DNA of 64,000 bases from an uncultured Bacteroidaceae bacterium (GTDB lineage: Bacteria > Bacillota > Clostridia > Christensenellales > CAG-917): NCBI GenBank assembly GCA_964637515.1, contig CAZWUI010000002.1, positions 16,665 to 80,664 of the forward strand. The letters run 5' to 3'. The stretch's first letter is position 1; every line of letters starts with the position of its first letter. Shown piece by piece: positions 6,106 through 53,362 of the stretch. The position numbers were made by a program, and so were the translations under genes. Below the pieces are notes generated by a model, which was not told where the DNA came from, did no database searches, and was given only the letters and a program-made list of their open reading frames with translations.

Positions 6106-6498
6106 CTAACGCACTCTTTTCGGTTTCAAATTGACCGCAATAACACCTGAAATTCCGCCCGCTATCGGCACGAAAACAAGATCGAGCCAGTTGAAATCCA
6201 CGCTCTTGAATCCGTCGAGACAAGCGAAAATCAGATAGGATAACAGGGTGTAGAGAAACCCTGAAATTGCACCTTTGAGTATGCCGTTTTGCTTGCCTTT
6301 GAAACCTATCAAAACACCCGAAAGCACGGATAATATTTTGATTGCGTAGTTGACGGGAGTGATAACTTTTCCGTCAAGGGACGCCCACCTGACGATGAGC
6401 GCGAATAGGAGTATAAAACCCAGTGAAAAGAGAAGTGATACCGGCACGCACTTGACGACGTCGAATAAGTCTTGCTTGAAATTTTCGGAATTTTTCAT
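6106..6498 (-). CDS. Small polytopic membrane protein of unknown function
   Basis: About 130 aa with four hydrophobic, Gly-rich segments. The start is placed at the internal ATG (MKNSENFKQD...). It resembles small Firmicutes membrane proteins, but I cannot name the family with certainty. Confidence 0.55.
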   Translation of the reverse strand: MKNSENFKQDLFDVVKCVPVSLLFSLGFILLFALIVRWASLDGKVITPVNYAIKILSVLSGVLIGFKGKQNGILKGAISGFLYTLLSYLIFACLDGFKSVDFNWLDLVFVPIAGGISGVIAVNLKPKRVR

Positions 6499-14282: not shown

Positions 14283-14284
14283 CT

Positions 14285-15682
14285 ATGATAAAATTCTCTT
14301 GCCCCAACGAAAACTACTTCAACGACCTTATGGAACTCATCCGCGCATTCGAGCAACGCACGGAGGAAAGTTTTTCAATTGACGTGGACTATCAAAACGA
14401 CGGTGAAGAACTTGTCGTAAAGGTGCGTACGGACAAATTTCCGAACTTTGAAAAGACTTTCCGCTATCCGTTTTCGGCAAAAGACGAAATGGAGAAAAAA
14501 CGCCTTGAAAAGCGGTATCTAAAGGAGTCGATTTACGGAACGGTCGTTTTTTTGACGGGGATAAATTTGCCTTACGGATGCTTGACCGGTATACGTCCAA
14601 CAAAACTTTTTGTGGAACTTGGCGACAAGGCGGACGAAACGTTTAGAAAAGAGTTTTCCGTTTCACCCAAAAAGGCGGATTTGATTGAGAAAATCGTGGA
14701 CGTGCAACGTCCGATTCGCAATCACGACGAAAATTCTTGCGACGTTTTCGTGTTCATTCCGTTTTGCCCGACGAGATGTGCGTATTGCTCGTTCGTGTCT
14801 GTTCCCATAGACAAGCAAAAGAAACTCATCGAACCTTACGTCGAGTGCCTTCTCAAAGAAATCGAATTTGCAAAAGAAGTTGTTAGAACACGGAATATCA
14901 AGGTCAGAACCGTCTATATCGGCGGTGGCACTCCGACTTCGATACCTGTCGAACTTCTCGACAAAATCCTGACTTCGTTGGACGACTTCGACGTGGACGA
15001 ATTTACCGTTGAAGCAGGTCGTCCCGACACGATGACCGCAAACGTGATACGCACCTTGAAAGCGCACAAAGTCACCAGAATTTCAGTGAATCCGCAGACT
15101 TTCAACGATAAAACACTTGAACTCATCGGCAGAAAACACACTTCCGCCGACGTCGAAAAGACTTTCAAGCACGTCAAAAATCTCTTTGACGTCAATATGG
15201 ATTTGATTGCAATGCTCCCCGGCGAGAGTGCGGACGACTTCCGCCGCTCCGTGGATAAAGCGGTCGAATTGTCCCCCGAAAACGTGACCGTACATACGCT
15301 ATATCTCAAAAAAGGCTCCAATCTCAAGGTGGACGGCTATCGCTCGACTGATAACGCTACCGCAGAAGAAATGGTGGATTACGCCTATCGAAAACTCACC
15401 GAAAACGGTTACGAGCCGTATTATATGTACCGCCAAAAATACACGAGCGGTAACCTTGAAAACGTGGGGTATGCAAAGCCGAATAAGGTTTGCGTGTATA
15501 ACGTGGACATAATGGAAGAGGACACGTCAATTATTGCGGTCGGAGCAAACGCAATCTCAAAAAAATGGACGAAATCAATCAATCTAATCGAAAGAAACGC
15601 GAATTATAAAGAACCGCTCGAATACGTCAAAAACTTCGATACCGTCATGCAAAAACAGCGCGCGTTTTGGCTCGAAAAATAA
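14285..15682 (+). CDS. Radical SAM protein, HemN/HemZ-family coproporphyrinogen-III-oxidase-like
   Basis: CxxxCxxC cluster CPTRCAYCSF, GGGTPT, and a ~160-aa N-terminal extension as in HemZ-type proteins. ATG 14285 was chosen because the ORF-track start 14111 overlaps the MBL gene. Confidence 0.85.
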   Translation: MIKFSCPNENYFNDLMELIRAFEQRTEESFSIDVDYQNDGEELVVKVRTDKFPNFEKTFRYPFSAKDEMEKKRLEKRYLKESIYGTVVFLTGINLPYGCLTGIRPTKLFVELGDKADETFRKEFSVSPKKADLIEKIVDVQRPIRNHDENSCDVFVFIPFCPTRCAYCSFVSVPIDKQKKLIEPYVECLLKEIEFAKEVVRTRNIKVRTVYIGGGTPTSIPVELLDKILTSLDDFDVDEFTVEAGRPDTMTANVIRTLKAHKVTRISVNPQTFNDKTLELIGRKHTSADVEKTFKHVKNLFDVNMDLIAMLPGESADDFRRSVDKAVELSPENVTVHTLYLKKGSNLKVDGYRSTDNATAEEMVDYAYRKLTENGYEPYYMYRQKYTSGNLENVGYAKPNKVCVYNVDIMEEDTSIIAVGANAISKKWTKSINLIERNANYKEPLEYVKNFDTVMQKQRAFWLEK

Positions 15683-15833
15683 ATTTTGAAAATTGTTCAA
15701 AAGTGGGCGATTTCGTTTTACAAAAAAAATTTAATGTGTTAATATACATACGTACTTTGTACTAGGTTCGGATAATCTCCAAATCCCTACTTTGTTCAAA
15801 GCGAATCACTTATCCAACGAAGGAGGCTAAACA

Positions 15834-16097
15834 ATGGATAAAGCAACGAAACAAGCAATCATAGCAAAATACGGCCGCAGCGAAGGCGACACCGGTTCCC
15901 CCGAAGTGCAAATCGCACTCCTTACCGCACGTATCAACGAACTCACCGCACACCTTAAGACTCATGCGAAAGACCATCACTCTCGTCGCGGTTTGCTCCA
16001 ACTCGTCGGTCAAAGAAAGAATATGCTCAACTATCTCAAGGAAACCGACATCGAACGTTACCGTGCAATCATCGCGGCACTCGAACTTCGTAAGTAA
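15834..16097 (+). CDS. rpsO: 30S ribosomal protein S15
   Basis: 87 aa with [14 protein letters not shown]..., [21 protein letters not shown], and RBS GAAGGAGG upstream. Confidence 0.98.
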
Positions 16098-28430: not shown

Positions 28431-29417
28431 ATGGCAGACAAAACCAATCTCGAACTCGCTCTTGCGCAAATCGAAAAGAAGTACGGCAAAGGTTCGATTA
28501 TGAAGATGGACGGCGAAAGCATCCCTCAAGTCGAAGCAGTATCTTCGGGGTGCTTGACACTCGACGCCGCACTCGGTATAGGCGGATTTCCCAAGGGTAG
28601 AATTATAGAAATCTACGGGCCCGAATCGTCGGGCAAAACCACCGTAGCACTCCACGCGGTAGCGGAAGTGCAAAAGGCGGGTGGTACTGCGGCATTCATC
28701 GACGCAGAGCATGCACTCGATCCCTGGTATGCATCAAATCTCGGCGTGCAAATCGAAAACCTTTACATATCCCAACCCGACAGCGGTGAACAAGCACTCG
28801 AAATTCTCGAAACTCTCGTCAGAAGCGGTGCTATCGATATAGTCGTAGTGGACTCCGTCGCGGCACTCACTCCCCAAGCGGAAATCGACGGCGAAATGGG
28901 GGATAGTCACGTCGGTCTTCAAGCAAGACTTATGTCCCAAGCACTCCGCAAACTCACTGCGGTCGCATCCAAATCAAAATGCACGATTATCTTCATCAAC
29001 CAACTCCGTGAAAAAGTCGGCGTTATGTACGGAAACCCCGAAGTTACCACCGGCGGTAAGGCACTCAAATTCTATGCTTCCGTCCGTATAGACGTCAGAA
29101 AAGCGGATACTCTCAAAGACGGTAGCGACGTCGTGGGCAATCACGTCAAAGCGAAAATCGTCAAGAACAAAGTCGCACCTCCTTTCAAAGTCGCAGAGTT
29201 CGATATTCTTTACGGCAAGGGCATTTCTTCCCTTGGTTGCGTGCTTGACGTAGCAATCGAAAAAGGTATCGTCCAAAAGAGCGGAAGTTGGTTCTCGTAC
29301 AACGACGAGAAAATCGGCCAGGGCAGAGAAAAAGCTCTCGACTATCTCAAGAACAACCCCGATATCGCAGACGAAGTCAACAGAAAAGTCCGCGAAAGTC
29401 TCGGACTCAACGCATAA
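28431..29417 (+). CDS. recA: Recombinase RecA
   Basis: Walker [38 protein letters not shown]. Confidence 0.98.
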
Positions 29418-40761: not shown

Positions 40762-41099
40762 ACTTTTTCATTTCCTCTTCCTTCTTACCTCACCCGATTT
40801 TCGTATTGTGCAGGATTTTTGGGAAGTAATAGGGGAAAGGTAAGAGCCAATAGGCAGTTGATGCTTGAGGTAATGGGTAATAGGGGAAAGGGACGAGGTG
40901 TGGATAAAAGTTGAAGTTTGTTTGTTACGTGTAGGAATAGTAATTGCAATGCGGGGTGATGAGCGGTATAATCGATGCAGAATAAAAGAGTGGAAGGAAG
41001 ATTTATGGCGGATAATACTGCAAAAAGCAAAATTAATCAATAGACACCGTAGAATGCCTTTTGGCATTTTGTGATAATTGTCAAATTTGGTTCTAAATC

Positions 41100-41152: not shown

Positions 41153-41239
41153 GCCGGAATGGCGGAATAGGCAGACGCAAGGGACTTAAAATCCCTCGAT
41201 AGCAATATCGTATCGGTTCGACCCCGATTTTCGGCACCA
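41153..41239 (+). tRNA. tRNA-Leu (anticodon TAA), class II with long variable arm
   Basis: Acceptor gccggaa/tttcggc (one G.U), anticodon stem aggga/tccct with loop ctTAAaa, variable arm cgatagcaatatcg, T-arm atcgg-ttcgacc-ccgat, and an encoded CCA. Confidence 0.93.
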
Positions 41240-41270: not shown

Positions 41271-41401
41271 ACAACCGGGCGGAGTTGATAATTGTTAAAT
41301 GACATTCGCTATTGACGAGTCGTTTATCACGGCGAAAAGCGAGAAACTGTCGCTAACGATACACGTGTTTAGAAAAATCGGGGGGCAATTTTAGATTTCT
41401 G

Positions 41402-41430
41402 TTGCAAAGCGCAGCGGATTATGCTAAACT
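41402..41430 (+). promoter_or_regulatory. Candidate promoter of the accessory cluster's first gene
   Basis: TTGCAA (41402-41407), 17 nt, then TGcTAAACT (hexamer at 41425-41430). The palindrome GTGTATA-N5-TATACAC (41441-41459) follows. Confidence 0.5.
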
Positions 41431-41485
41431 TACTATATACGTGTATAGCGCATATACACATACGCGCGTTGCGCAGTGGAGGATT

Positions 41486-43252
41486 ATGCTTAGAACCGCA
41501 TACGTAAAAAGAACCACCTACAAGCCGATTGACTTTTTCTTCCGCGGGGTAGCGGATGCAAAGACGAAAAAGGTTGTTTTCGTAGACGCTTTCCAAATAC
41601 TTAACGACAGGTATCTCGGAAGAATGAGCGTATGCAACTATTTCTTCATAGCGGAAAACTCCGTCCGCATCAACGAATTGAACGTTATTGCGCTTGACGA
41701 ACTGACGAATTATCATCTCGTAATGCGCGCGAATTTCTTGATTCCCGAGAAGGTGACGTATAGTTTGCCTATCACGACTCGTTTTCTTGAGAACGAGAAA
41801 GAATTTGAGATATTGCTTTCGACGATCAAGGACAACGGCTACAAGAAAGGCGACCTGATCATTTCATTCAACAGCAACACCATCATGAAGATTGACGACG
41901 AAGCGAAGAAACGTTACGATCGCTTGCGCCGACTCGGATACAAGACCTGCATTAACGGATTTGGTGAGGAGTTCAACTCACTTGACGTATTTGCGCGGTT
42001 CAATTTTGATTATTTACGTCTTGAAGCGCAGTATTTTGACAGCACTCAACCCAAGAAACGCATACTGAACATGCTTGTGAAGTATTGCGGAGCGAACAAA
42101 ATCGGGCTTATTGTTGAAGGCGTAGACACCCCGGGACAACTAAATAGGTTCAAACGCGAAGGCGTGAAACTCGTGACGGGCAAAGCGGTGTCCAAACTTT
42201 CCCGTTGGGTTACGAACGAATTTTTGGGACTTCCCGAACTGAAAGGAGAGAAAAAGGAAGCCTATCTCAAGAAACTCGACAAGGAAATCACCGCTCTTGA
42301 GAATAAGGAGCAGGCGGAATACGAAGAGATGATGCGCATTGCGCGTGAAAAGGCGAAAGCGGATGCGACGAGCGGCAAAGTCCGTCCGATAGCACCGAGA
42401 CCCGAGCTTGTCAAATCTCCCTATCAAATCAGGCTCGAACAACAAAAAGAGAGAGCACGTCGTGCTGCGCTTGCAAGGGCAGAGAAATCGGCGGAGCACA
42501 AAGAAGAAGTCCGCTTGACGAGAGAAGAGTATCGAGAGCAACGACTTATCGAAGACGCAAGACACGATATGTTCGAGGGTGACGTGCAGAGCATACTTGC
42601 ATTGGGCGCACACGCGGACGAGAAAGCGAAAACCGAAAGTGCGGACGAGAAAGAGAAGAAACCCGCAAAAGCGGAAACCAAGAAGAAAGAAACCGCAAAG
42701 AAAGAAGTTGAAGTCGCACCCGAAACGGTCGAACCCGTAGTCGAAGAAAAGGCGACTGCAAAAAAGAAATCCAAGAAGACGAAAGACGTCGTCGCGGACA
42801 CCGACAAAGAGAACAAACTTCTCGGCGAGTTCAAGGGCGGTAGTCTTGACAAACAATTAGGATTCGGCAGCGGATTCGGTGGATTCGGCATCAATCTCTC
42901 TTTCAAGGACGAGGACGAAGAAGAAATCGTCGGTCACTACAACGAGAAAGGTCAGTGGATCGATGAGGACGGATATATCTACAACGGCTACTTCGACGAA
43001 AAAGGCGAGTGGCACGACTATGAGACTTTCAACGCAAACGAAGAAGGTCACTACAACGACGACGGTCAGTGGGTGGATAAGGACGGCAAAGTCTACGACG
43101 GCTACTTTGACGAGAACGGCAGGTGGATTGACTACACCTACGTGGACGACAACGGCAACACCGTATCCAACGGCTACTACGACGAGAAGATCAAAAAGTG
43201 GGTTCCGTACGGCTACTTCGATGAAGACGGCACGTGGAAACTGTATGAATAA
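41486..43252 (+). CDS. Degenerate (probably non-catalytic) EAL-like domain protein with K/E-rich coiled region and C-terminal aromatic-Gly-Asp repeats
   Basis: The EAL-domain scaffold is recognisable: YKPI for YQPI, LRRLGYKTCINGFGEEFNSL for ..lDDFGtGySSL, and LIVEGVDTPGQL for vAEGVEt..q. The catalytic signature residues are replaced: EAL>DAF, ExxE>SFNS, DD>NG, KxD>RLE, and QG>TG. RBS GGAGG precedes ATG 41486. The C-terminus has ~15-aa repeats GY(F/N)DE.G.W.D. Confidence 0.65.
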   Translation: MLRTAYVKRTTYKPIDFFFRGVADAKTKKVVFVDAFQILNDRYLGRMSVCNYFFIAENSVRINELNVIALDELTNYHLVMRANFLIPEKVTYSLPITTRFLENEKEFEILLSTIKDNGYKKGDLIISFNSNTIMKIDDEAKKRYDRLRRLGYKTCINGFGEEFNSLDVFARFNFDYLRLEAQYFDSTQPKKRILNMLVKYCGANKIGLIVEGVDTPGQLNRFKREGVKLVTGKAVSKLSRWVTNEFLGLPELKGEKKEAYLKKLDKEITALENKEQAEYEEMMRIAREKAKADATSGKVRPIAPRPELVKSPYQIRLEQQKERARRAALARAEKSAEHKEEVRLTREEYREQRLIEDARHDMFEGDVQSILALGAHADEKAKTESADEKEKKPAKAETKKKETAKKEVEVAPETVEPVVEEKATAKKKSKKTKDVVADTDKENKLLGEFKGGSLDKQLGFGSGFGGFGINLSFKDEDEEEIVGHYNEKGQWIDEDGYIYNGYFDEKGEWHDYETFNANEEGHYNDDGQWVDKDGKVYDGYFDENGRWIDYTYVDDNGNTVSNGYYDEKIKKWVPYGYFDEDGTWKLYE

Positions 43253-43257
43253 TAGCA

Positions 43258-44481
43258 ATGGCAGACGAAGTGAACAACGAAATCAATTCCGACGTCAATG
43301 AATCCGTGGCGGACGTGGCGGAGAATACCGTGGAGAAGTCCGGCAATAAGGCGGAAAAGGCGGAGAAGCCCAAAAAAATCAAGGCTCACCGCATGACCAA
43401 GGAAGAAAAGGAAGCGGCACGTGAAGCGCAAAAGGAGAAATCCCGCCGACAAAAGGAATGGGAAGATAGCCTTGTCGCGAACAAGCGTGTCAAACGAGAA
43501 GAAACTCGGCGCAAATTCAAACGTGCGTTGATGGTTCTGCTCGTGTTTTCGCTTATCTTGACGTCGGTTGTTTACATCATGTTGCTTTTCATCGAAGAGA
43601 ACAATATCCGTATCACCGCATCGTCGAAAAACGATAAGTCGATCGAGTTGTCCTTCGATCGTGACAACTGGTCGCCCTTCCTTGACGTGAAAGGTCCTGA
43701 AGATATGTGGAACGTGAGTTACGATCCGACCTACGAGCAGGGGGACGTGCTGACCTTGTCCGCTATCGAATCCAAACTCCGCGCCTATGCGGAAAATCCC
43801 GATCAAAATGCGATCAGCGGAAACCATTCTCGTAGCAATATCATCGAGTTCTGTTTCTTCTTGCGCAATAGCGGAAGTGAAAGAGTGCAATACAATGCCG
43901 AAATGCTCTTGTCATCCAACGACGAAGGTCTTGAAGATGCTATCCGTGTCGCTTGGGGGGAAGGCTACTACGGCACCAATGCAGAACAACCCGACCGCGC
44001 TCAATACGACGTCAGATGCTATGCTGCTCCGTCGGATAGAGAAGTGTTGAGTTTCAGTCAGATTGACGGCAAAGGCAACGTCTATGAACAGGGCGGTGTC
44101 GAGAAAATCGCATACCCCGCTTGGACGAGCGGTAAGTGGGACTCTGCCGCCAAAGCGCCTTGCACCACGGAACAACTCCAACAGTATGAACAAGGTCTTG
44201 TGTTGAACACCGTCACCGGAAATTATCAGGAAGTCAGCCTTCTCGACAAAAAAGGCGAACAGATTTACGATACCGCAAACGATTACCTTCTTGCCACCGG
44301 CTATCAAAACACGATACCGTTTGTCGGCAACGATTGCGTGTTCGACAACGTTTCCTACCTGAACGCAGGCGAAACACTTTGCGTCTACGTTGCGATATGG
44401 ATCGAAGGCTCCGACTTTGATTGCGGTGACAATGCAATTGACGGCTATGTCACGCTTTCGATCAACTTCACGGTGGAATAA
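43258..44481 (+). CDS. Type-II membrane-anchored TasA/camelysin-like protein (candidate fibre anchor or accessory subunit)
   Basis: ~90-aa K/E-rich cytoplasmic N-terminus and a single TM (ALMVLLVFSLILTSVVYIMLLFI). The ectodomain opens with EENNIRITASS (compare VEDLNIAVKAA in the next gene). It ends in VYVAIWIEGSDFDCGDNAIDGYVTLSINFTVE, the same motif as the 358-aa protein. Confidence 0.6.
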   Translation: MADEVNNEINSDVNESVADVAENTVEKSGNKAEKAEKPKKIKAHRMTKEEKEAAREAQKEKSRRQKEWEDSLVANKRVKREETRRKFKRALMVLLVFSLILTSVVYIMLLFIEENNIRITASSKNDKSIELSFDRDNWSPFLDVKGPEDMWNVSYDPTYEQGDVLTLSAIESKLRAYAENPDQNAISGNHSRSNIIEFCFFLRNSGSERVQYNAEMLLSSNDEGLEDAIRVAWGEGYYGTNAEQPDRAQYDVRCYAAPSDREVLSFSQIDGKGNVYEQGGVEKIAYPAWTSGKWDSAAKAPCTTEQLQQYEQGLVLNTVTGNYQEVSLLDKKGEQIYDTANDYLLATGYQNTIPFVGNDCVFDNVSYLNAGETLCVYVAIWIEGSDFDCGDNAIDGYVTLSINFTVE

Positions 44482-44636
44482 GGTTACCGTCCCCGCAAGA
44501 TTCCGTCGCTTGCTCGGAATGACATGGTGTGGCGGGGAGTGCCGTTAGGGTGTGGGTGATAGAGAAAGTTGATTGCAACTCAACTGTCATTGCGAGGAGC
44601 AATGCGACGCAGCAATCTCCGGGAAAGAAACCGCTT

Positions 44637-44666
44637 AAAAACACTCGATGAGTGTTTTTATTTTTC
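44637..44666 (+). terminator. rho-independent terminator ~155 nt after the 43258-44481 gene
   Basis: Stem aaaaacactc/gagtgttttt with a 3-nt loop, followed by ATTTTT. Confidence 0.8.
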
Positions 44667-44973
44667 TTGAAAAGAGAAAAAATAAAAAAAATATTAAAAA
44701 AATTTTCTTTAAAAGAGTGAAAATAGTTTAAGTGAGAAAAACGCATATGCGTGCGTATATGGGCGTATGCACACGAGGCTGATATATTAAAATAATATGC
44801 AAGAAAACGGCGAAAAAATCACGAAATATGGATAATTTGATGAATAAAAATACGGCAGTTCAAATATGGTTGAAGAGTTAAGATCCGCGGAAAACTCGGG
44901 AAAAATTCACGGAAAAAGTGCATTATTTCGAGAGAAAATCAACAGATATCGGGGTCGTGTTGAAAAAATATCA

Positions 44974-45002
44974 TTGACAAATTTTTGCAATAATTATACA
45001 AT
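44974..45002 (+). promoter_or_regulatory. Near-consensus sigma-A-type promoter of the fibre-subunit gene
   Basis: TTGACA (44974-44979), 17 nt, then TACAAT (44997-45002). It sits at the end of a ~500-bp very AT-rich tract and leaves a ~200-nt leader. Confidence 0.65.
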
Positions 45003-45073
45003 GTTCGTGAATAAGAGTGGGTTGGTGTGCATTCTCACGCGGAGTGCGCGCGCAAAACATGATTGTTCGGGCG

Positions 45074-45114
45074 CATTAAAGGGGCAATAGTTGCGTATGC
45101 GGCGACATAAGCAC
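45074..45114. repeat. Left copy of a 41-bp inverted repeat (in the fibre-gene 5' leader)
   Basis: cattaaaggggcaatagttgc-gtatgc-ggcgacataagcac. The reverse complement of 46626-46666 is identical in both arms (21 + 14 nt) and differs only in the 6-nt centre (ttacgt). Confidence 0.9.
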
Positions 45115-45212
45115 TCACTATGAGAGGGCGTCCTCAAGTTAAAAGAAAATAATCAAACAAAATATAAAAAGTCGGTCGGAGCGGAAGTGACGGCTGATGA
45201 AAAGGAGAGATT

Positions 45213-46289
45213 ATGAAAAAGAAAGGTTTGATAGTAGCAACCATCGTGATGGTACTCGTCCTTGCAGTATCACTCTCGACCGCAACCTACGCCTGGTTCT
45301 CTAGCGAAGCTCAAGCCACTGTTGAAGATTTGAACATAGCAGTCAAAGCGGCAACCGGTGTTGAAATTGCTGTTTATGAATCCGGTGACAAGTATTTCAA
45401 CGGTGATATGACTTATTCGCAAGACACTCAAGCTTGGAATTCTGAAACAGAAGGTTTTGGCACCTTGCTCAATTTCAGCAATATCGACCTTGGTCAAATT
45501 AACAATGCTATCCTTTATGCAAGTAGCACAAATTTGAATAATGTTCCTGCCGCAGCAAAATTTGTTTATACTATAGGAACAAAAGAAGTTGGCGCAACCC
45601 TTACTACGACTGACTATATCATCAATGCAGACGGCAGCATCACTCAATGCACTGCAGATTCTCAAGCTGTTGCAGATACCACTTATGCAACGAGAGTACC
45701 ACTTACGGCAGATAGCAAATTCTACAGACCTACCGGACTTGACAATGCCGGTGATCCTTATGGATTCTACGTTGCAAAACCCAACGATAAGATTACAAAC
45801 GTCTATACCACATATTATGACATTCCTCTTGCAATGCGTGCGGTTAAGAACACTAACGGCATCGTCTGCACTCTCAAGATTAAACCCAACGGAGATATTA
45901 CAAACACATTGTATCCCGGAATGGCGGCATCCACTTATGTCAATATGTATATCACCAATGCTTCCGGCGAACAATACGCAGCGACTTTCGAAGCATATAA
46001 GTCTGCAACTTATTCATCAGGTGCAATCACCGGTGAAATTGAAACCGAAGGCGCATACTCTTTCGTCGTAGCAAAAGGTGCTCTTACTACAAGCGATATT
46101 TACAAAATTCGTTTCGAAATCTGGGTTGAAGGCACTGATCCTGAATGCAACAACACCACCACTCAAGCAACCGACTTCTACGTTGATTATTCCTTTGACG
46201 TCATCGATGAAGAAATTACCGGCACTAGCATTGATAAAGAGGGCGTAACTTATCAAGTTATTGACGGCTTGACTCAAACCAAAGCATAA
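45213..46289 (+). CDS. Secreted TasA/camelysin-like protein with SipW-cognate-type signal peptide (candidate major fibre subunit)
   Basis: RBS AAGGAGAG. The N-terminus MKKKGLIVATIVMVLVLAVSLSTATYA|WFSSEAQATV parallels B. subtilis TasA ...GGGTWA|AFNDIKSKDATF in position and pattern. The C-terminal IRFEIWVEGTDPECNNTTTQATDFYVDYSFDV fits the W..(6-8)..N..Q..alternating-hydrophobic end of the TasA/camelysin family. SipW-type peptidase genes are adjacent. Confidence 0.7.
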   Translation: MKKKGLIVATIVMVLVLAVSLSTATYAWFSSEAQATVEDLNIAVKAATGVEIAVYESGDKYFNGDMTYSQDTQAWNSETEGFGTLLNFSNIDLGQINNAILYASSTNLNNVPAAAKFVYTIGTKEVGATLTTTDYIINADGSITQCTADSQAVADTTYATRVPLTADSKFYRPTGLDNAGDPYGFYVAKPNDKITNVYTTYYDIPLAMRAVKNTNGIVCTLKIKPNGDITNTLYPGMAASTYVNMYITNASGEQYAATFEAYKSATYSSGAITGEIETEGAYSFVVAKGALTTSDIYKIRFEIWVEGTDPECNNTTTQATDFYVDYSFDVIDEEITGTSIDKEGVTYQVIDGLTQTKA

Positions 46290-46310
46290 AAACTAAACCA
46301 AACCTTACAT

Positions 46311-46341
46311 AAAAAAGAGAGCCAAACGGCTCTCTTTTTTA
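46311..46341 (+). terminator. rho-independent terminator after the fibre-subunit gene
   Basis: Stem gagagcc/ggctctc with loop aaac, flanked by AAAAAA and TTTTTT. Confidence 0.85.
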
Positions 46342-46398
46342 TTCAGTTCAGTCGGTTAGAACTGCGGTTTTTGTTGCGTTTGCAAAATAACCGTTCCA

Positions 46399-46430
46399 CA
46401 AAAAAAAGAGCCATTGCGGCTCTTTTTTTA
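46399..46430 (-). terminator. Mirror-image terminator belonging to the decayed convergent paralogue
   Basis: Stem gagcc/ggctc flanked by A- and T-tracts. Its minus-strand flank ctagaccaaacctaaacacataaaaaaagagcc closely matches the plus-strand flank ctaaaccaaaccttacataaaaaagagagcc after the intact gene. Confidence 0.7.
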
Positions 46431-46453
46431 TGTGTTTAGGTTTGGTCTAGTTA

Positions 46454-46625
46454 TCAAGTACCACTTTCTGTGGTTCTAGCAGGATGGTTGGTGCTGAAAT
46501 TGATATAGATTTCAGAAGAAACACCTTTTGCTTGGTCGCAGCAGTCGGTATCGGTTCCGTCAATTCAAATAAGAAGATGAATTTGATAAATGGTTTGTCT
46601 GTCCAGATAATTAGTGCCAGTAGTG
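46454..46625 (-). pseudogene. 3' remnant of a third TasA-like paralogue with an in-frame TGA at the conserved Trp
   Basis: Minus-strand translation is ..TTTGTNYLDRQTIYQIHLLI*IDGTDTDCCDQAKGVSSEIYINFSTNHPARTTESGT*. It aligns with ..LTTSDIYKIRFEIWVEGTDPECNNTTTQATDFYVDYSFDV of the intact gene. The TGA (46565-46567) replaces the W codon. There is no start codon, RBS or N-terminal ~300 codons, and the remnant abuts the right inverted repeat. Confidence 0.7.
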
Positions 46626-46666
46626 GTGCTTATGTCGCCACGTAAGCAACTATTGCCCCTTTAATG
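46626..46666. repeat. Right copy of the 41-bp inverted repeat
   Basis: gtgcttatgtcgcc-acgtaa-gcaactattgcccctttaatg, which is the reverse complement of 45074-45114 except for the central 6 nt. Confidence 0.9.
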
Positions 46667-46752
46667 TGACGAAACAAAACGTGCGCACGGGTGGGAAAAT
46701 ACAAAATCGGGCGGAGTTTGGCAGGGTGGAAGTCGCTGTGTGAAAATTGGGG

Positions 46753-46781
46753 TTGACACTATTCACTATTAGTTATATAAT
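46753..46781 (+). promoter_or_regulatory. Consensus sigma-A-type promoter of sipW-like gene 1
   Basis: TTGACA (46753-46758), 17 nt, then TATAAT (46776-46781). It leaves a ~190-nt leader. Confidence 0.7.
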
Positions 46782-46974
46782 AACTATGAGTAAGTGGGGT
46801 GGTCCCTGCTCGCTCGTTATCCTGCTCGGTCGTCAAAGCGGTTCATTCCGTGCTAGGGCAATAAGCATTCGACTATCGGGCTACAAATTCGCTTGCGGAG
46901 AACGTAGCGTGCCGTTCGGCACGTGTAAAGGGCAATAGGCATTTGTTTTCGGCAGGAAAGGAAAAGGGATTTTT

Positions 46975-47784
46975 ATGTCCAATCTGTTTGCAAAAAGAGA
47001 GAAAAAAGAACTCTCTCCATCTCAACAAAAAGCCAAAACGATTATCGGGTGGGTGGTCAGTGCAATCTGTATCGTCATCATAATCGCCGCTTTGGCTATC
47101 TCCGTGCTCACCATCACTCGCACAACGAGCGATAACGGTGTGGCACATCTCGGGAAGCACACGTTCAATTCCGTCGTCACCGACTCAATGGAACCGACTA
47201 TTGCGAAAGGTGAACTCATCATCGCGAAGGTCTACAACGACGAAACCGATCGTGGCTCTTTGCAAGTCGGGCAAACTATCGTCTACAAAAAACTTATGTA
47301 CAATAGCGCCGCCGGCGGAAACGTCGAAGTGTTTTTCGTGCATAGAATAGATAGTCTCGGCGCTGCGTCTTGCCACGTCATAGGCGACAATCCCAACACC
47401 GCCGAACAAGATGATAACGTTTCGTACAACAATATCATCGCGACTTGGGGCTCTCCCGCAACTCTCAACGAGGACGGCACTTTCACCGTCACCAAGGATA
47501 GCAAGGGCGCATCGCTTGGCAAGCTCGGCACTTTCGTCAACTGGCTCCAAGAAGACCGCACCAATTATTTCTGCGTGATAGTTTTGCCGCTCATTTTGCT
47601 CTTCGTCATCTACGGTTTCGTGCTTATCCGCGCTCTCGTCATCGCAAAACTCTCAAAGGATAACGAGAAGAAGTCCGTCAGCGTCGAAGACCTGTCCGAA
47701 GACGAGAAAAAACGCCTTGCCGCAGAGTTGCTCGCATCTCTCACCGAAAAGAAAGAAACCGAACAAATCGACTCCGATTCGTAA
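46975..47784 (+). CDS. SipW-type (ER/archaeal-type, S26B) signal peptidase I, long form with C-terminal TM and acidic tail
   Basis: N-terminal TM. Ser box VVTDSMEPTI, His box FFVHRID, and GDN box VIGDNPNTAEQD, compared with B. subtilis SipW SGSMEP / THRIV / KGDNN..D. A second TM (YFCVIVLPLILLFVIYGFVLI) and the tail VEDLSEDEKKRLAAELLAS follow. Confidence 0.85.
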   Translation: MSNLFAKREKKELSPSQQKAKTIIGWVVSAICIVIIIAALAISVLTITRTTSDNGVAHLGKHTFNSVVTDSMEPTIAKGELIIAKVYNDETDRGSLQVGQTIVYKKLMYNSAAGGNVEVFFVHRIDSLGAASCHVIGDNPNTAEQDDNVSYNNIIATWGSPATLNEDGTFTVTKDSKGASLGKLGTFVNWLQEDRTNYFCVIVLPLILLFVIYGFVLIRALVIAKLSKDNEKKSVSVEDLSEDEKKRLAAELLASLTEKKETEQIDSDS

Positions 47785-47959
47785 CCGTCTTCAGAGAACG
47801 CAGACTCTTGCGATGCTTTCGTTTCTGCAGAGAATAGCGAAATTCAATCGTCGGATACCGCCGACGTTTCTGATACCATAGGGGAGGAAGGCGGGCAACA
47901 ATAACCGTGCTTTTCGGCGCGAGTTTTGACGTCTATGACGTCAAGTCCGTGATAATATT

Positions 47960-49480
47960 ATGAATATTAGTCTTGTTTTCAAATTTTTGAGAGCGTTCCT
48001 CGGAGCGTTCTACGTTAATGGCATCGGCTCTATCTTTTGGGGTTTCTTGCATATCTTCTACAACGACGGTTACTCGGAGGCTTTCAAAAACTACACCGAC
48101 CAGTTCGGCGCAGGCGAGTGGGCTGTCTCCATTATCTTTATCATACTCATCATCGCCGCTATCGTCGCTATTGTCGGCCTTATCGTTTTCGGCATAATCA
48201 AGCTCGTGCGTATCAATAAAAACGTCGTCCTCCCTCAAGACCTCGTCGAAGAATGCGCCAACCTCAAAAAACAAATCATCAAAATGTCCGCCGAAAAGGA
48301 TAGAATCCTCGGTATGAAGGTCAGCGACGTCGGCAACTACGACGGCGAAGAGCCCGAAGAAGGCAAAGAGCCCAGCGCTGAAGAAGCCGTCAAAGCAGGG
48401 GAGTCGCGTTTCTACAAACTCACCGAAATCGACCAAATCTACGAAAATTACGTTCCCCCTGTATACGACGACGAGATCACTCTTCCCGAACTTTGCGACC
48501 GTTTCAGAAATTTCGCATGCTCGCGTATGCGCCTTTTCTATAATCCGCGTATCATCCGCTTGTTCATCGCAGGTATGTCAACTTCGCGTTTGATGATCTT
48601 GCAAGGTATTTCCGGTACAGGTAAAACTTCACTCCCGCACGCTATGGGTATCTTCCTCAATAACCCCGCAACTATCGCTTCCGTTCAGCCGTCTTGGCGT
48701 GACCGTACCGAACTTTTCGGCTACTTCAACGAATTTACAAAACGATTCAACGAAACCGAAGTCTTGAAAAAAATGTACGAGGCGACTTGGAATAAGAATA
48801 TCTACCTCACCGTCCTCGACGAAATGAACATCGCGCGTGTCGAGTACTACTTCGCAGAAATGCTCTCCATTCTCGAAATGCCGTCCCGTGACGAGTGGAT
48901 CGTTGACCTTGTTCCGTCAGGTTGGCCTAATGACCCGAAACATATCGATAAAGGCCGTTTCAAACTCCCCGAAAATATGTGGTTCATCGGCACCGCAAAC
49001 AACGACGACTCCACCTTCGCTATCTCGGATAAGGTTTACGACCGTGCTATGCCTATCAACATCAACTCCAAAGGCGTCGCTTTCGACGCTCCTTATGCGG
49101 AGTCGATCTATATCAGTTACGAGCACCTTGAAAGTATGTTCAAGGACGCTATGGTCGAACATAAGGTGTCTCAAGAAAACCTTGACAAAATCGACCAACT
49201 TGACGACTACGTCATCAAACACTTCAGACTCGCATTTGGTAACCGTATCGTCAAACAGCTCAAAGAATTTGTTCCCGCTTACGTCGCTTGCGGTGGTACC
49301 GAACTAGACGGTCTCGATTACGTTCTTTGTAACAAGATTTTGCGTAAGTTCGAATCCCTCAACTTGTCCTACATCCGCGACGAAATCGACGGTCTAATCC
49401 TTTATCTGTCTGATCAGTTCGGGGAAGACTCGATGGAAGAGTGCAAGGAGTATTTGCAACGCTTGAAGAAACTCTTTTAA
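47960..49480 (+). CDS. Membrane-anchored McrB-like AAA+ (AAA_5 family) NTPase
   Basis: Two N-terminal hydrophobic helices (res ~8-32 and ~55-80) and a coiled coil. Walker A LQGISGTGKTS, Walker B with McrB-family continuation LTVLDEMNIARVEYYFAEMLSILE, and WFIGTANNDDSTFAISDKVYDRAM (an NxxD like McrB NTAD). No obvious RBS. Confidence 0.75.
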   Translation: MNISLVFKFLRAFLGAFYVNGIGSIFWGFLHIFYNDGYSEAFKNYTDQFGAGEWAVSIIFIILIIAAIVAIVGLIVFGIIKLVRINKNVVLPQDLVEECANLKKQIIKMSAEKDRILGMKVSDVGNYDGEEPEEGKEPSAEEAVKAGESRFYKLTEIDQIYENYVPPVYDDEITLPELCDRFRNFACSRMRLFYNPRIIRLFIAGMSTSRLMILQGISGTGKTSLPHAMGIFLNNPATIASVQPSWRDRTELFGYFNEFTKRFNETEVLKKMYEATWNKNIYLTVLDEMNIARVEYYFAEMLSILEMPSRDEWIVDLVPSGWPNDPKHIDKGRFKLPENMWFIGTANNDDSTFAISDKVYDRAMPININSKGVAFDAPYAESIYISYEHLESMFKDAMVEHKVSQENLDKIDQLDDYVIKHFRLAFGNRIVKQLKEFVPAYVACGGTELDGLDYVLCNKILRKFESLNLSYIRDEIDGLILYLSDQFGEDSMEECKEYLQRLKKLF

Positions 49481-49643: not shown

Positions 49644-52559
49644 TTGCGGCTGTTTGAGTTCGATAAGAGTTTCGTACGCTTGGCGACAAAACCTATAAGC
49701 ATTAACGTATATCGCTTTGCGATAATGAGAGATATGTCCGATAATAAATTGACCAAAGACGTTTATCTGCAGTATGCTAAAAAAATCGTTTCCGTTCTCT
49801 ACGGCGACGACTTCTTTAACCAATACAAAAAAAGAGTCGACGACGGTTTCGCAGATTTCAAACTCGTCAAAAAACGCCTAATTCAAGATATTTCCGTCGA
49901 TTGGATCGATACAATCGAGGACGTCTTGCCCAATCTCGATGCTATCGTCCGTAACCCACGTAGGTTCATCGTGCAGGAAGAAGATATCGTCGATATTTCG
50001 CTCGCAAAGGCTATCTCTACCGAGTCCGTCAAACACCTTGCGCAACATACCAATATGATCTCCAAGGTCGACGAGGACGGCACCGTTACCCCTAACAGAA
50101 TACTTAATATCACAAAGGAAGAATCCTTTGAAATATACGAAAACCGCTTTATATTCACCTTGCTTTTGAAGCTCAAAGACTTCGTGCAGATGCGCTACGA
50201 CAAAATCAAAAAGGCATCCGCAACTCAAGATGTCTTGCAGCTCAACGTGGATAGCAAGTTCAATTTGCCGTCAAAGAAGGTCACCTATCGAACGGAATAT
50301 ATGGCGCAACTCAGTTTCGACGAGGTCATGAGAATGGACCCCGAAACCCTCGAAAAAATCGAAAGAGTTGCCAAAATCGACAGAATTATCACCGACTTTT
50401 TGAGTTCGTCTTTCGCAAAGTCGATGAGAAATTCCGCTCCCGTCCGTCCGCCTATCACGCGTACTAACGTCATCTTGAAAGAACCTAACTTCAAGAAAGC
50501 GTTGACTCTTTGGCAGTTCATCGAAACATATCAGGCGACCGGCGGTTTCTCCACGTCGGACGATATCGAGGACTACAAAATCGAGGATAATTCGCAACAG
50601 CAACTTCGTCAAATGGTCACTCTCAATACCATGCTTTTCGAGAGTCTATACGACCAGCACGAAACGGATATGGACCTCGACGACGCTCAATTCACCGACC
50701 TTTTGAGAGTGGGCGACCTCGACTTCGGCAAGGACGAAATCCAACACGACGAATACTCTCAAAAACTCGACGAAGAAGATAAGACGGAAGATAGCGATAA
50801 GCAGGAAGAAGTTTCTCAAACGGAGTCCGAAGAACAAAAGGAACAAGAACAAGAAACTCCGCCCGAAGAAGTCGAAGTCGAAAAAGAAGTCATCGAAGAA
50901 CAAGAAATCGAAGTGGATAAGGACAAAGAAGTCGAAACACCTCCCAAGGACGAGCCCGACGACGAAGAGCCCGATGCCGATAAATTCGATCAAAACCTGT
51001 TCGATATACGAAAACTCTATAAACGCCCCGAAGATGACAAACTCCGTCAGGAAGAAGTGTCCAAAATCAAGGACGCTATCGATCGTTGTCTTGTCGCATA
51101 CCGCAAAATCAAACAGGAAGAACTCGACGAAAGAGACCGCGAAGAGAATGCGAAACGCAGAAAAGCAGAACTCGAAAAACGTGCGGAAGCTTTCCGTTCT
51201 AAAAAAGCGGAATTCGGCGATCAGGACGGACAAATCTATCTCGGTACGGACGCTTTCGGCAAGTCCGTCGTGCAGGATAAGAAAGAAGAATTCAAGAAAG
51301 CACATAAAGAACTGTTCTCAAATCGTAACGAACGCCTCGATCTCGGCGATAAGGACCTTGAAAATATCCGCAAGAGTATTGAAGCTATGGAACAGGAACG
51401 CGCAAAAGACGAAGAACGTCGCAATAAAATCGCGTTCGCAGGAGACGGAGAAGAGAGAGAAGTTGATGAAACCGATATTCCCGTCGTCGATCTCGACGCT
51501 CAACTCAAAGCGAAAGAAGAACTCGAACGCAGAAATTCCGTTCGCTTTGACGGTGAGAGAAATCTACTTGCAGGCGGCATAGGTGCGGACACTTCATTCG
51601 TCGATAAACGCAAGAAGAAAACAGAAGAAATCAAACCGCGTACGACTACGCTCAAACCGACTTCAAGCAAGGTCAAACGTCAACGCGTCATAGAGCCCGT
51701 GGACGAAAATAAGGTCAAAGTCGGAGATGCTCCCGTCCAATTCGACGACGGATTCGGCAATACGTTCGGTGAACAAAAAGCAAATCTCGGCGACTTGTCC
51801 ACCGTGCAAAAACCCGCTCGCAAGAAAAAGAAATTGGAAGAAGTCGTACCCGAAAACGCAGACGTCAAGACCGAAACCGCGGTCGAAACCGCTCCCGAAA
51901 CGGTCAAACCCAGAACCAGAAAGGCAGAGCCTAGAGATCCGTGGGCATTGTCGCCGACCACACTCAATCAACGCTACGACGTCGCAAGCGGTAAAGTGCG
52001 CAACTTCGAGGCGGTTGACGAAAACAAGGTCAAAGTCGGAAAAGCCCCCGTAAAGAATGCGAACGCAGGGGACCTTCTCGACGATACGTTTGAAGACCAA
52101 AGAGCAAATCTCGGCAACTTCGACAAGAAACCTGTGGTGAAAGTCGAAGAAAAGACGGAAGAGCCTAAACCCGTCAAGAAGAGAACGAGAAAGCCTAAAA
52201 CTGAAAAAGCACCCGAAGTGAAATCCGAAGATACGGCGGAAACCGCAGGTGCCGATACCGCACAGGAAAGCAAGGTCGAAACTCCTGTCGCAGAAGAGAA
52301 GAAAGAAGAAAAGAAACCAAAAATCAGAAAGGCAGAGCCTAGAGATCCGTGGGCGTTGTCCCCGACCACTCTCAATCAGCGTTACGACGTTGCAAGCGGT
52401 AAAGTGCGCAACTTCGAGGCGGTTGACGAAAACAAGGTCAAAGTCGGAAAAGCCCCCGTAAAGAATGCGAACGCAGGGGATCTTCTCGACGATACGTTTG
52501 AAGATCAAAAGGCAAATTTGGGTATAAAAAAGAAGAAAAACGAGGATGATAAGGATTGA
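49644..52559 (+). CDS. Large acidic protein with McrC/DUF2357-like N-terminal domain, no recognisable nuclease, and a C-terminal repeated module
   Basis: It lies immediately downstream of the McrB-like gene. Residues ~90-190 fit the McrC N-domain/DUF2357 pattern (...RRFIVQEEDIVDISLAK...ITKEESFEIYENRFIFTLLLKL...). I see no D..(D/E)xK motif. Residues ~340-700 are E/D/K-rich. A 66-aa module occurs twice, plus one degenerate copy. The true start is uncertain (ATG 49644, 49725 or 49734). Confidence 0.6.
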   Translation: MRLFEFDKSFVRLATKPISINVYRFAIMRDMSDNKLTKDVYLQYAKKIVSVLYGDDFFNQYKKRVDDGFADFKLVKKRLIQDISVDWIDTIEDVLPNLDAIVRNPRRFIVQEEDIVDISLAKAISTESVKHLAQHTNMISKVDEDGTVTPNRILNITKEESFEIYENRFIFTLLLKLKDFVQMRYDKIKKASATQDVLQLNVDSKFNLPSKKVTYRTEYMAQLSFDEVMRMDPETLEKIERVAKIDRIITDFLSSSFAKSMRNSAPVRPPITRTNVILKEPNFKKALTLWQFIETYQATGGFSTSDDIEDYKIEDNSQQQLRQMVTLNTMLFESLYDQHETDMDLDDAQFTDLLRVGDLDFGKDEIQHDEYSQKLDEEDKTEDSDKQEEVSQTESEEQKEQEQETPPEEVEVEKEVIEEQEIEVDKDKEVETPPKDEPDDEEPDADKFDQNLFDIRKLYKRPEDDKLRQEEVSKIKDAIDRCLVAYRKIKQEELDERDREENAKRRKAELEKRAEAFRSKKAEFGDQDGQIYLGTDAFGKSVVQDKKEEFKKAHKELFSNRNERLDLGDKDLENIRKSIEAMEQERAKDEERRNKIAFAGDGEEREVDETDIPVVDLDAQLKAKEELERRNSVRFDGERNLLAGGIGADTSFVDKRKKKTEEIKPRTTTLKPTSSKVKRQRVIEPVDENKVKVGDAPVQFDDGFGNTFGEQKANLGDLSTVQKPARKKKKLEEVVPENADVKTETAVETAPETVKPRTRKAEPRDPWALSPTTLNQRYDVASGKVRNFEAVDENKVKVGKAPVKNANAGDLLDDTFEDQRANLGNFDKKPVVKVEEKTEEPKPVKKRTRKPKTEKAPEVKSEDTAETAGADTAQESKVETPVAEEKKEEKKPKIRKAEPRDPWALSPTTLNQRYDVASGKVRNFEAVDENKVKVGKAPVKNANAGDLLDDTFEDQKANLGIKKKKNEDDKD
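51917..52523 (+). repeat. Intragenic direct duplication: two 199-bp copies with 408-bp period
   Basis: 51917-52115 and 52325-52523 are near-identical, with a central ~100-bp stretch that matches exactly. Both encode RKAEPRDPWALSPTTLNQRYDVASGKVRNFEAVDENKVKVGKAPVKNANAGDLLDDTFEDQ(R/K)ANLG. Confidence 0.92.
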
Positions 52560-53362
52560 TGTCCCCGGAAACTAAAACTAAAATCAAAAAAATATATAAT
52601 ATTTTTTCCACGGTTATATTCGCCGTGGTTTTCCTTTTCTTCGTGCTGGTCATAATATTTTCTATGGTGCAGAAAAACCAAGGAAAAGACGTCAAGATTT
52701 TCGGGCATTATATGTACACAATTCTCACGGATAGTATGGTGCCCACTCTAAATCCGTCAGACGTCATTTGGTGCAAGGCGATAGAAGAAGGGGATATTGT
52801 CGAAGGCGCGATTATAACCTTTGTTGTGCCCGAAGGACACGGCGGTTTGTCGGGTAGAAACGACACTCATAGAATTGTGGAAATCGAGCGTGACGAAAAC
52901 GGCATTATCACGGGTATTTACACTCAAGGGGACAACAGCACCGTCAGGGATAATTGGAAATTGACAGTGGACGACGTGAAGGCGGTTATGTCAAAAAAAC
53001 TCGTGGTCGTCAGTGCGCTCATCAAATTCATAAGCGAATATAGATTCTTGGCATATATGGTGTTAATCGTCCTACCTCTCGGCTCGATAGCGGTCATGTT
53101 TGGAATATCCTACGTCAGGGAGAAAGTCAAGGAAAAGAAAGCGGAAACCGCAGGCGGAGAAGTCGCACTTGACGATTTGTCCGACGAGGACAAGAAAAAG
53201 ATGCTTGAAGAATTTTTGGCGCAGTCAACGGCAGAAAAATCTGAGAGTGAAGAAAACGATCAATTTGGCGAAGGAAACTCACTGCAAACGACAGAAGATG
53301 CGATTAGAATGCCTGAAAACGACGAAAACACTCCCGAATGCAACGAAAACAGTGACGATTGA
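52559..53362 (+). CDS. Second SipW-type signal peptidase I, long form with C-terminal TM and acidic tail
   Basis: Ser box ILTDSMVPTL, His box DTHRIVE, GDN box TQGDNSTVRD, a second TM (FLAYMVLIVLPLGSIAVMFGI), and the tail LDDLSDEDKKKMLEEFLAQ. ATG 52559 overlaps the TGA of the preceding gene (TGATG). The ORF-track start 52556 is a TTG. Confidence 0.85.
   Translation: MSPETKTKIKKIYNIFSTVIFAVVFLFFVLVIIFSMVQKNQGKDVKIFGHYMYTILTDSMVPTLNPSDVIWCKAIEEGDIVEGAIITFVVPEGHGGLSGRNDTHRIVEIERDENGIITGIYTQGDNSTVRDNWKLTVDDVKAVMSKKLVVVSALIKFISEYRFLAYMVLIVLPLGSIAVMFGISYVREKVKEKKAETAGGEVALDDLSDEDKKKMLEEFLAQSTAEKSESEENDQFGEGNSLQTTEDAIRMPENDENTPECNENSDD

Follow-up and report, generated by a model that had tools for sequence, protein, structure and literature searches.

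Short inverted repeats on either side of a single gene can mark a working DNA switch, the debris of a duplicated gene, or a functional element that happens to be present twice, and the locus described here raises the question of which applies. It lies in a 64,000-nt stretch of contig CAZWUI010000002.1 (hereafter the window; all positions refer to it), from assembly GCA_964637515.1 of an uncultured bacterium placed by GTDB in the clostridial lineage CAG-917. The gene encodes a 358-aa secreted protein, termed here the fibre gene, and is followed by sipW, a gene for a SipW-type signal peptidase. A sequence-only reading of the window had offered three accounts of the repeats: (a) an internal deletion that had left behind a dead convergent paralogue, (b) inversion of the ~1.5-kb segment that would uncouple the fibre gene from its promoter, or (c) a functional RNA or protein-binding box kept on both copies. 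We consider it likely that the locus is a decayed, probably locked relic of a two-gene inversion cassette that swapped the secreted fibre-type protein.

The 41-bp repeats described previously (45074–45114 and 46626–46666) are real and form the core of somewhat longer arms. A repeat search of the region returned, as its top inverted repeat, two arms of 52 nt (45063–45114 and 46626–46677) with 45/52 positions matched (87% complementary) and a spacing of 1511 nt. Within the core, the blocks of 21 and 14 nt are identical as claimed, and the two arms retain no exact match longer than these; of the six central positions, three differ (GTATGC versus TTACGT), not all six. The left-arm core consists of the box CATTAAAGGGGCAATAG, the hairpin GTTGC-GTATGCG-GCGAC and ATAAGCAC. 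A whole-window scan found no other perfect inverted 18-mer pair ≤3 kb apart in the 64 kb, which excludes a chance origin of the repeat. The left arm lies 99–150 nt upstream of the ATG at 45213 and downstream of a promoter-like site (Table 1). As in gene-swap inversions, inverted repeats (52 nt, 87%) enclose a segment with alternative coding sequences.

Inversion of intact cassettes in relatives

We compared the window with contigs and loci that carry homologues of the fibre gene (numbered with the prefix L). In L004, L005, L008, L009 and L045–L053 the gene order is an EAL-domain gene, a 407-aa gene, the cassette, sipW, a McrB-like gene and a DUF2357 gene, and each cassette holds two intact convergent fibre genes. 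Across 30 metagenome loci the convergent pair is usual wherever the contig is long enough, and a scan of the genome collection with the 407-aa flank protein returned only three loci, one already in the set. The relatives' inverted repeats span the proximal leader and ~29–30 signal-peptide codons and measure 62–376 nt at 97.5–100% identity overall (168 nt at 98% in L004, 376 nt at 99% in L005, 215 nt at 99% in L009, 203 nt at 97.5% in L048, 373 nt at 98% in L023, and 62 nt at 100% plus 108 nt at 80% in L008). Long homogenised repeats of the kind that RecA-type exchange calls for are present in the relatives, with exact runs of up to 156–366 nt, and absent from the window, where 21 + 14 nt match exactly. 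The mature parts of paired fibre genes share 25–42% identity; repeats at 98–100% beside coding parts so diverged need ongoing exchange between the arms. Many short-read contigs of the family stop inside the signal-peptide repeat, and metagenome assemblies therefore systematically break the locus or orient it arbitrarily.

Inversion was observed directly in the relative represented by L045–L053. Its 330-aa protein P0086 occurs on 12 contigs from different samples. P0086 adjoins sipW, and its 348-aa partner adjoins a 395-aa gene, in five of the contigs shown (L045, L046, L047, L049, L050), whereas in three (L048, L051, L053) the two have exchanged places. The central 2341 nt are 99.96–100% identical yet inverted, the flanks (99.5–99.9% identical) are colinear, and the switch points lie within the 203-nt repeat. 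Each of the two flank haplotypes is found with either orientation (hap1, L045, L046 and L050 versus inverted L051 and L053; hap2, L047 and L049 versus inverted L048), so the inversion happened more than once. The arms of L045, L046, L049 and L048 differ by an indel and four single-nucleotide polymorphisms (SNPs), and their longest exact repeat is ~105 nt; because this is shorter than the MEGAHIT k-mer of 141, these orientations are supported by reads. Inversion in this relative is thus real and recurrent. The inner-end SNPs always, and the poly-A indel mostly, travel with the gene body, which places the crossover in the outer, first ~175 nt of the 203-nt repeat, where site-specific and homologous exchange are not separable.

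The comparison of the window with L004 points the same way. Their flanks are 93–94% identical; colinearity stops at 45092 and resumes at 46634, both within the arms, and the whole segment between, with both terminators, is inverted. The orthologue of the window's fibre gene (79% in the mature part) stands in the opposite slot of L004. The window's left inner leader matches the right-side inner leader of L004 (GTTGCGTATGCGGCGAC, 15/17; CGTCCTCAAGTTAAA, 14/15; each scoring above all 300 shuffles), and neither segment has a match in the left inner leader of L004, a comparison that is independent of how the inner segment of L004 was assembled. Between L008 and L009, the hairpin modules just inside the box are likewise swapped between sides, with the breakpoint at GGGCGAAT. 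The same allele (94–99% identity) also occupies opposite slots in L016/L037 and in L023/L035/L038; these loci serve as supporting evidence only, L037 being mosaic and the repeats there longer than the assembler k-mer.

A consensus promoter scan of five genomes (the window, L004, L005, L009 and L048) found a near-consensus TTGACA-17-TACAAT promoter to the left of the left repeat in every case and no comparable promoter reading into the right slot; the consensus sipW promoter, to the right of the right repeat, is directed away from the cassette. In L048, a terminator-like hairpin lies on the minus strand just outside the right arm. The simplest reading of this arrangement is that only the left-slot gene would be transcribed and that inversion would swap the expressed subunit. 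It had been proposed beforehand that an intact second gene with the same leader in related genomes would indicate plain duplication followed by decay. Such a gene is indeed present, but the conclusion does not follow, since the two-gene segment of the relatives inverts and the strong promoter stands on one side only; the rule was too narrow.

Several further features of these cassettes were recorded. In L016–L043, from human gut metagenomes, ~670 nt upstream together with the signal-peptide codons are 97–98% identical, and the mature-protein allele differs from contig to contig; the subunit body is hypervariable at the population level in these loci, and many short contigs hold just the gene between the repeats. 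L028 has a leader and signal-peptide repeat of 253 nt at 97.6% (3653–3905 versus 6051–6303), and only the first ~37 codons of its second gene were detected by tblastn; this would be another mode of decay than that of the window, where the 3′ end survives. In L009, outer inverted repeats (11201–11425 versus 15748–15970; 85 nt at 91%, 62 at 87%, 35 at 97% and 42 at 83%) enclose the whole fibre cassette and sipW, suggesting that inversions may be nested in some relatives. Cargo seems to accumulate between the convergent genes: a DUF3800-VIII RNA (RF03075) is found there in L005 (7890–7956, minus strand, 40.9 bits against a gathering score of 40.2) and L004 (7336–7402, plus strand, 36.4 bits), each match having its own near-consensus promoter (L005, 8035–8007, minus; L004, 7256–7284, plus). 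L005 also has a 229-aa open reading frame (ORF) between its genes and L008 a 668-aa ORF (12966–14972). The window has nothing between its two terminators.

The proposed decayed cassette of the window and rival explanations

We propose that the 41/52-nt repeat is the outer stump of a far longer inverted-repeat pair, which would have flanked two convergent genes for alternative SipW-processed, TasA-like secreted fibre subunits. In the intact system, one strong promoter and the outer leader would stand to the left of the cassette, and the repeats would extend from a GGGGC(A/G)-type box and hairpin through the proximal leader and the ribosome-binding site to the end of ~29–30 signal-peptide codons. 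Recombination between the repeats would invert the two-gene segment, place the other gene behind the promoter and, presumably, swap the fibre variant. In the lineage of the window, a deletion would have taken out the right-hand copy between a point just inside the box-hairpin and one ~58 codons before the stop, leaving the 358-aa gene fixed behind the promoter and the second slot dead; that slot would also have acquired an in-frame stop. Since the second gene is lost, a residual flip over the 41–52-nt stump could only cut the 358-aa gene off from its promoter. In this scheme we infer the expression of the left slot alone, the formation of fibres by the protein, the enzyme of the exchange and the loss of flipping in the window genome.

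The remnant predicted on the minus strand directly inside the right copy is present. Read from 46630 down to 46454, its frame gives STTTGTNYLDRQTIYQIHLLI, a stop, then IDGTDTDCCDQAKGVSSEIYINFSTNHPARTTESGT followed by two stops (the part after the first stop begins IDGTDTDCCDQAKGVSSEIYINFST), and it fits the family C-terminal motif ..IYQIHLIIYIAGxDxDC..; it has neither a start codon nor a ribosome-binding site. The in-frame TGA falls at the conserved aromatic position (W/Y/F) of the I(W/Y/F)I(A/E)G motif, and the variant strain L006 has the same base there. Recoding of TGA was ruled out as an account of the stop, as TGA ends 13 of 43 window genes. The coding part is as strongly diverged as had been stated (32% identity over 37 aa to the intact gene, with no tblastn match). 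The two terminator flanks, previously described as near duplicates, are in fact only moderately alike (34 nt at 74%, 15 nt at 93%); each is 91–97% identical to its counterpart in L004, and segment 46400–46459, which holds the terminator of the remnant, matches that of the second gene of L004 (329 aa) at 96.7% identity in inverted orientation.

All relatives have the two or more functional coding cassettes that a gene swap needs, and in every relative examined the second gene is intact, with the same leader and signal peptide, whereas the window has a remnant with a TGA and no start. Account (a), a dead convergent paralogue produced by internal deletion, is upheld by this comparison. Both arms are followed by CACTA, a possible sign that the deletion, as reconstructed here, was joined at a microhomology. 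The deletion is common to the variant strain L006 (97.7% identical) but not to L004 and must therefore be recent. The same orientation is found in six of six independent assemblies spanning the arms (the window, L001 and a near-duplicate, L002, L003, and L011/L012), in contrast to the five versus three contigs of L045–L053, and no contig of the window strain breaks at the arms; judging from these assemblies, the switch is probably stuck in this strain. A scan of metagenome contigs for the exact pattern of box plus hairpin, aimed at either junction in close strains, gave 0 matches. Account (b) stands for the ancestral system and its living relatives, and inversion has probably been lost in the strain of the window.

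The relic must be weighed against other explanations, of which plain tandem-inverted duplication followed by decay, with independently expressed paralogues and orientation differences that are assembly artefacts, is in our view very improbable. Perfect repeats of 156–366 nt do exceed the usual assembler k-mers, so some orientations in metagenome-assembled genomes (MAGs) are unreliable; the resolved MEGAHIT contigs (L045, L046 and L049 versus L048) nevertheless show both orientations of an identical segment, and inner-leader modules that lie outside the long repeats are swapped between sides. Nor would duplication account for the near-identity of the repeats next to diverged coding parts, which requires arm exchange, or for a strong promoter at one slot only. 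A different possibility is that the stump is still a working ON/OFF switch, in which an unlinked invertase recognising the box, or rarely RecA, flips the 1.5-kb segment in part of the population. The box noted in the sequence-only reading is conserved and sits at the outermost end of the invertible segment, and the long repeats of every relative begin exactly at its motif (as in L005, GGGGGGTTTCG; L023, CGGCAATACG; and L048, TGGGGCGTAT). In two lineages (window versus L004, L008 versus L009), the breakpoints of evolutionary rearrangements coincide with the GGGC(A/G)AT-type box, which may thus be a crossover site. The variant strain (L006, L013) has arms without a single mismatch over at least 41 nt, with TTACGC at the center of both, and the three substitutions between the strains' arms all lie in the central 6 nt, a pattern that fits conserved half-sites for binding around a free spacer and equally fits a hairpin loop. 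We nonetheless regard a working switch as unlikely. Beyond the single orientation and the unbroken contigs described above, the two hexamers of the window differ at three of six positions, which would hinder a tyrosine recombinase that needs spacer identity; exact matches of 21 and 14 nt are a poor substrate for RecA; the major ORFs of the 64-kb window include no invertase; and, were the box a recombination site, its direct-orientation look-alikes ahead of sipW would expose the locus to deletions. We also doubt the wider proposal that box and hairpin form the crossover site of an unlinked invertase serving SipW-dependent fibre cassettes across a clade of uncultured gut/rumen Clostridia, with the stump still a substrate. 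If it were true, this strain would turn its sole fibre gene ON and OFF, a state intermediate between an antigen swap and a simple phase switch.

The conservation of the box may instead reflect a cis-acting leader element of every fibre-locus transcript, such as a signal for RNA processing or stabilization or a regulator-binding site, whose inverted duplication is incidental; this is a serious possibility, though not one that we favor. A GGGC(A/G)AT(A)-type box followed by a hairpin stands at the outer repeat edge of every relative and in all fibre leaders examined, the hairpins being unrelated in sequence and often capped by a GNRA or UUCG-type loop. Two box-like copies are also found in the sipW leader of the window, L008 and L009, and the strain differences of the arms are confined to the hairpin loop. 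The hairpin of the window's box is, however, only marginally more stable than its shuffles (z = −0.9 to −1.7). Neither the box nor the leaders of the window, L004 and L005 matched an Rfam family, even at E up to 1–10; at the gathering threshold over the window, and at E ≤10 over 43000–48500, Rfam returned only tRNAs and sub-threshold terminator-like matches (for example Spy1786666, 33 bits against a cut-off of 64), with no known riboswitch or leader. A leader element also leaves the inversions observed in relatives unexplained. Account (c), a functional box, is partly borne out: it gains from the conservation of box and hairpin in all relatives and from the copies in the sipW leader, and loses from a right arm that now has no gene to regulate and whose presence stems from descent rather than from a present function, the deletion being recent and found only in strains at least 97.7% identical. 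A short upstream ORF that follows the box in both window arms (AAAGGGG ribosome-binding site, TTG start, 10–12 codons) is not conserved, L004 and L005 having 3 codons or no start, and was rejected. On the sequence evidence the box may be a recombination site, a leader element that acts as RNA or binds a protein, or both.

Some observations weigh against the relic of a two-gene cassette that we prefer. The right slot may have a non-sigma-70 promoter, left-only expression being read from a consensus promoter scan. The identical arms of the variant strain could mean that arms there are still exchanging sequence (the k = 31 contigs of that strain stop in the repeat and carry no orientation information), and low-level flipping in the window strain, whose orientation is known from assemblies alone, is conceivable, if improbable. 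Several MAGs have a perfect repeat longer than the k-mer used in assembly, and the orientation of the inner segment in L004, L005, L023/L035 and L016/L037 is not fully trustworthy alone. The assignment of the protein as a fibre subunit is itself weak (no Pfam or PDB sequence match, and Foldseek template modeling (TM) scores to TasA of 0.24–0.34).

Domain scans of the major ORFs found no recombinase, invertase or transposase domain in the 64-kb window, in agreement with the earlier remark that none is nearby; in particular, the window lacks a dedicated recombinase of the Hin/Gin/Piv/RecV/Mpi type, such as a site-specific inversion system employs. This absence is weak evidence, as the long perfect repeats of the relatives could serve general recombination or an unlinked invertase. 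The window does contain recA (28431–29417), whose presence is uninformative on whether the inversion depends on RecA.

Features of the locus and its neighborhood

Table 1. Positions of the features of the fibre locus in the 64-kb window.
Feature	Position	Strand	Remarks
407-aa membrane protein, conserved, left flank of cassette	43258–44481	+	
Sigma-70-like promoter, only strong one facing the cassette	44974–45002	+	TTGACA-17-TACAAT, 11/12 matches; outside the repeat
5′ leader of fibre gene	45003–45212	+	Fold z = −3.0
Left arm of inverted repeat	45063–45114	.	From search for inverted repeats and arm comparison
Fibre gene, 358-aa secreted protein, intact	45213–46289	+	Signal peptide MKKKGLIVATIVMVLVLAVSLSTATYAWF, family-invariant
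Terminator after intact fibre gene, bidirectional	46309–46342	.	Perfect 15-bp hairpin between A and T runs
Second terminator hairpin, of lost convergent gene	46401–46429	.	
3′ remnant (~58 codons) of second fibre paralogue	46454–46630	−	No start codon, no signal peptide
In-frame TGA in remnant	46565–46567	−	Conserved aromatic (W/Y/F) position of I(W/Y/F)I(A/E)G motif
Right arm of inverted repeat	46626–46677	.	Joined directly to paralogue remnant
sipW promoter	46753–46781	+	Consensus TTGACA-17-TATAAT; points away from cassette
Box-like copy in sipW leader	46855–46869	+	AGGGCAATAAGCATT
Second box-like copy in sipW leader	46918–46943	+	GGCACGTGTAAAGGGCAATAGGCATT
SipW-type (archaeal-type) signal peptidase I	46975–47784	+	TIGR02228 3e-9, SipW 2e-8, both below curated cut-offs

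The signal peptide of the fibre protein ends in ATYAWF and is nearly invariant in ~190 homologues from uncultured Clostridia. The 358-aa protein gave no Pfam, NCBIfam or PDB sequence match, a PDB profile search included, and no sequence-profile match to TasA/camelysin (Peptidase_M73). We compared its AlphaFold2 model (predicted local distance difference test score of 86) with known structures using Foldseek, in which the TasA fibre 8AUR ranked top by probability (0.94) and fifth by E-value, a weak match (E = 4e-3). The signal peptide, the adjoining SipW-type peptidase gene and the structural match together suggest a TasA-like fibre subunit, a plausible identity from which the label "fibre gene" is taken. 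The SipW-type peptidase presumably processes this protein. The leader, whose transcription start is deduced from the position of the promoter, is predicted to fold into a long 5′ hairpin, a single-stranded box, a short hairpin and an A-rich proximal leader, followed by the ribosome-binding site.

The window is core chromosome of a spore-former, with ruvAB, recJ, relA, pnp, ftsK, recA, rny, spoIIIA, nusB, xseA, comM, dprA and topA. To the left of the cassette, the C-terminus of the 407-aa membrane protein bears the fibre-family motif IWIEGSDFDC (within VYVAIWIEGSDFDCGD), and this protein may be related to the fibre subunit but tethered to the membrane, where it could serve as an anchor or nucleator, for example. 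Next to it lies an EAL-domain protein (41402–43252) with a long K/E-rich linker and C-terminal EAGR-box-like aromatic/glycine repeats, whose gene contains an internal DNA repeat (42932–43020 versus 43046–43134, ~78%); it may tie cyclic-di-GMP signaling to the fibre locus. Beside the EAL gene, tRNA-Leu(UAA) (41153–41239) is on the plus strand in the window, whereas L004 and L005 have it reversed between the same flanks; this is a second difference by inversion, of small size. Copies of a 15-nt direct repeat, TGATAATTGT(C/T)AAAT, lie on either side of the tRNA gene, at 41072–41086 and 41286–41300.

To the right, a McrB-like AAA protein with N-terminal membrane segments (47960–49480) and a 971-aa DUF2357 (McrC-like) protein (49644–52559) lie between two SipW-type peptidase genes, the one adjoining the cassette and another at 52556–53362. 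The order of the McrB-like gene, the DUF2357 gene and the two peptidase genes is kept in L004, L005, L008, L009 and L045–L053. For a restriction system, so stable an association of an McrBC-like pair with a fibre locus is not what one would expect.

Comparison with known inversion systems

The locus and its relatives point to a new target family for variation by inversion, widespread in uncultured gut Clostridia; the kind of mechanism is classical, and the feature in the window is a relic. A clade of uncultured spore-forming gut Clostridia keeps two very different subunit genes in opposed orientation behind what is probably one promoter and demonstrably flips them in natural populations, with repeats that, in the relatives, are perfectly identical over hundreds of bases without a linked invertase gene. 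The window documents the decay of such a switch, in which a single deletion would have reduced the repeats to a stump and the second gene to a dead 3′ fragment, with the subunit now fixed. L004 and the strain of the window, with ~6% flank divergence, form a dated before-and-after pair for asking what vanishes with variation.

In Firmicutes, TasA-like proteins processed by SipW form matrix or surface filaments. As in the matrix-fibre operons tapA-sipW-tasA of Bacillus subtilis and sipW-bsaA of Clostridium perfringens, the SipW-type peptidase gene here adjoins genes for secreted proteins, putatively of beta-sandwich fold, that share a characteristic signal peptide; unlike those systems, the fibre protein here has no Pfam or NCBIfam match. 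Neither system is, to our knowledge, known to vary by DNA inversion.

Among inversions that alter genes, the catalogue of Milman, Yelin and Kishony (2023, PMC9881135) stresses size asymmetry between gene and pseudogene, repeats within coding sequences, and linked recombinases. The present locus shares with the cases described there repeats that are common to a gene and its opposite partner, orientation that varies within a species, and surface or specificity targets; it differs in that both partners in the relatives are full genes and that the repeat takes in the untranslated leader. The main text of that catalogue does not contain the terms SipW, TasA or "signal peptid(e)", and the gene-family lists examined include no such family. 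Our search of a paper library found no report of DNA inversion varying SipW/TasA-type genes or their major subunit.

Closer to the state that remains in the window are leader switches. Promoter invertons of gut bacteria (PhaseFinder type) and the RecV-dependent cwpV and flgB switches of Clostridioides difficile invert a regulatory segment of 150–400 bp, and their recombinase may be unlinked. In such switches, as here, short inverted repeats lie in the 5′ leader between the promoter and a surface-structure gene, and an ON/OFF outcome would be that of a residual flip in the window. Unlike them, a whole gene or gene pair would invert at this locus, and no flipping was detected in the assemblies of the window strain.

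The intact cassettes of the relatives resemble systems that exchange one coding body for another. The phage Mu G segment is one classical gene-swap inversion. In Moraxella bovis and M. lacunata, the tfpQ-tfpI pilin inversion is carried out by the Piv invertase, with the piv gene adjacent and short crossover sites in the coding region. The relatives share with Moraxella a fixed promoter and, by their layout, a constant 5′ part outside an invertible segment of ~2 kb, in which the variable subunit body would be swapped, and a target that would be the major subunit of a surface filament. They differ from it in that the repeats are long (to 376 nt) and cover leader and signal peptide, neither gene is truncated, there is no linked invertase, and the proteins belong to an unrelated family.

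The S-layer protein gene sapA of Campylobacter fetus offers the nearest parallel. Dworkin and Blaser are said to have found, in 1996–97, that its inversion involves a single promoter and conserved 5′ regions and depends on RecA. There, the promoter lies on an invertible segment between divergent cassettes, of which there are up to 8–9, nested inversions occur, and an abundant surface protein is thereby varied antigenically. Both systems use the long conserved 5′ regions of divergent surface-protein paralogues as inverted repeats; a single promoter, the lack of a dedicated invertase and antigenic variation would also be common to both. In the present system, by contrast, the promoter is outside, two convergent genes are inside the segment, and just two slots are seen. 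Judged by this analogy, the logic of the locus matches that of classical gene-swap inversions, and that of C. fetus sapA especially.

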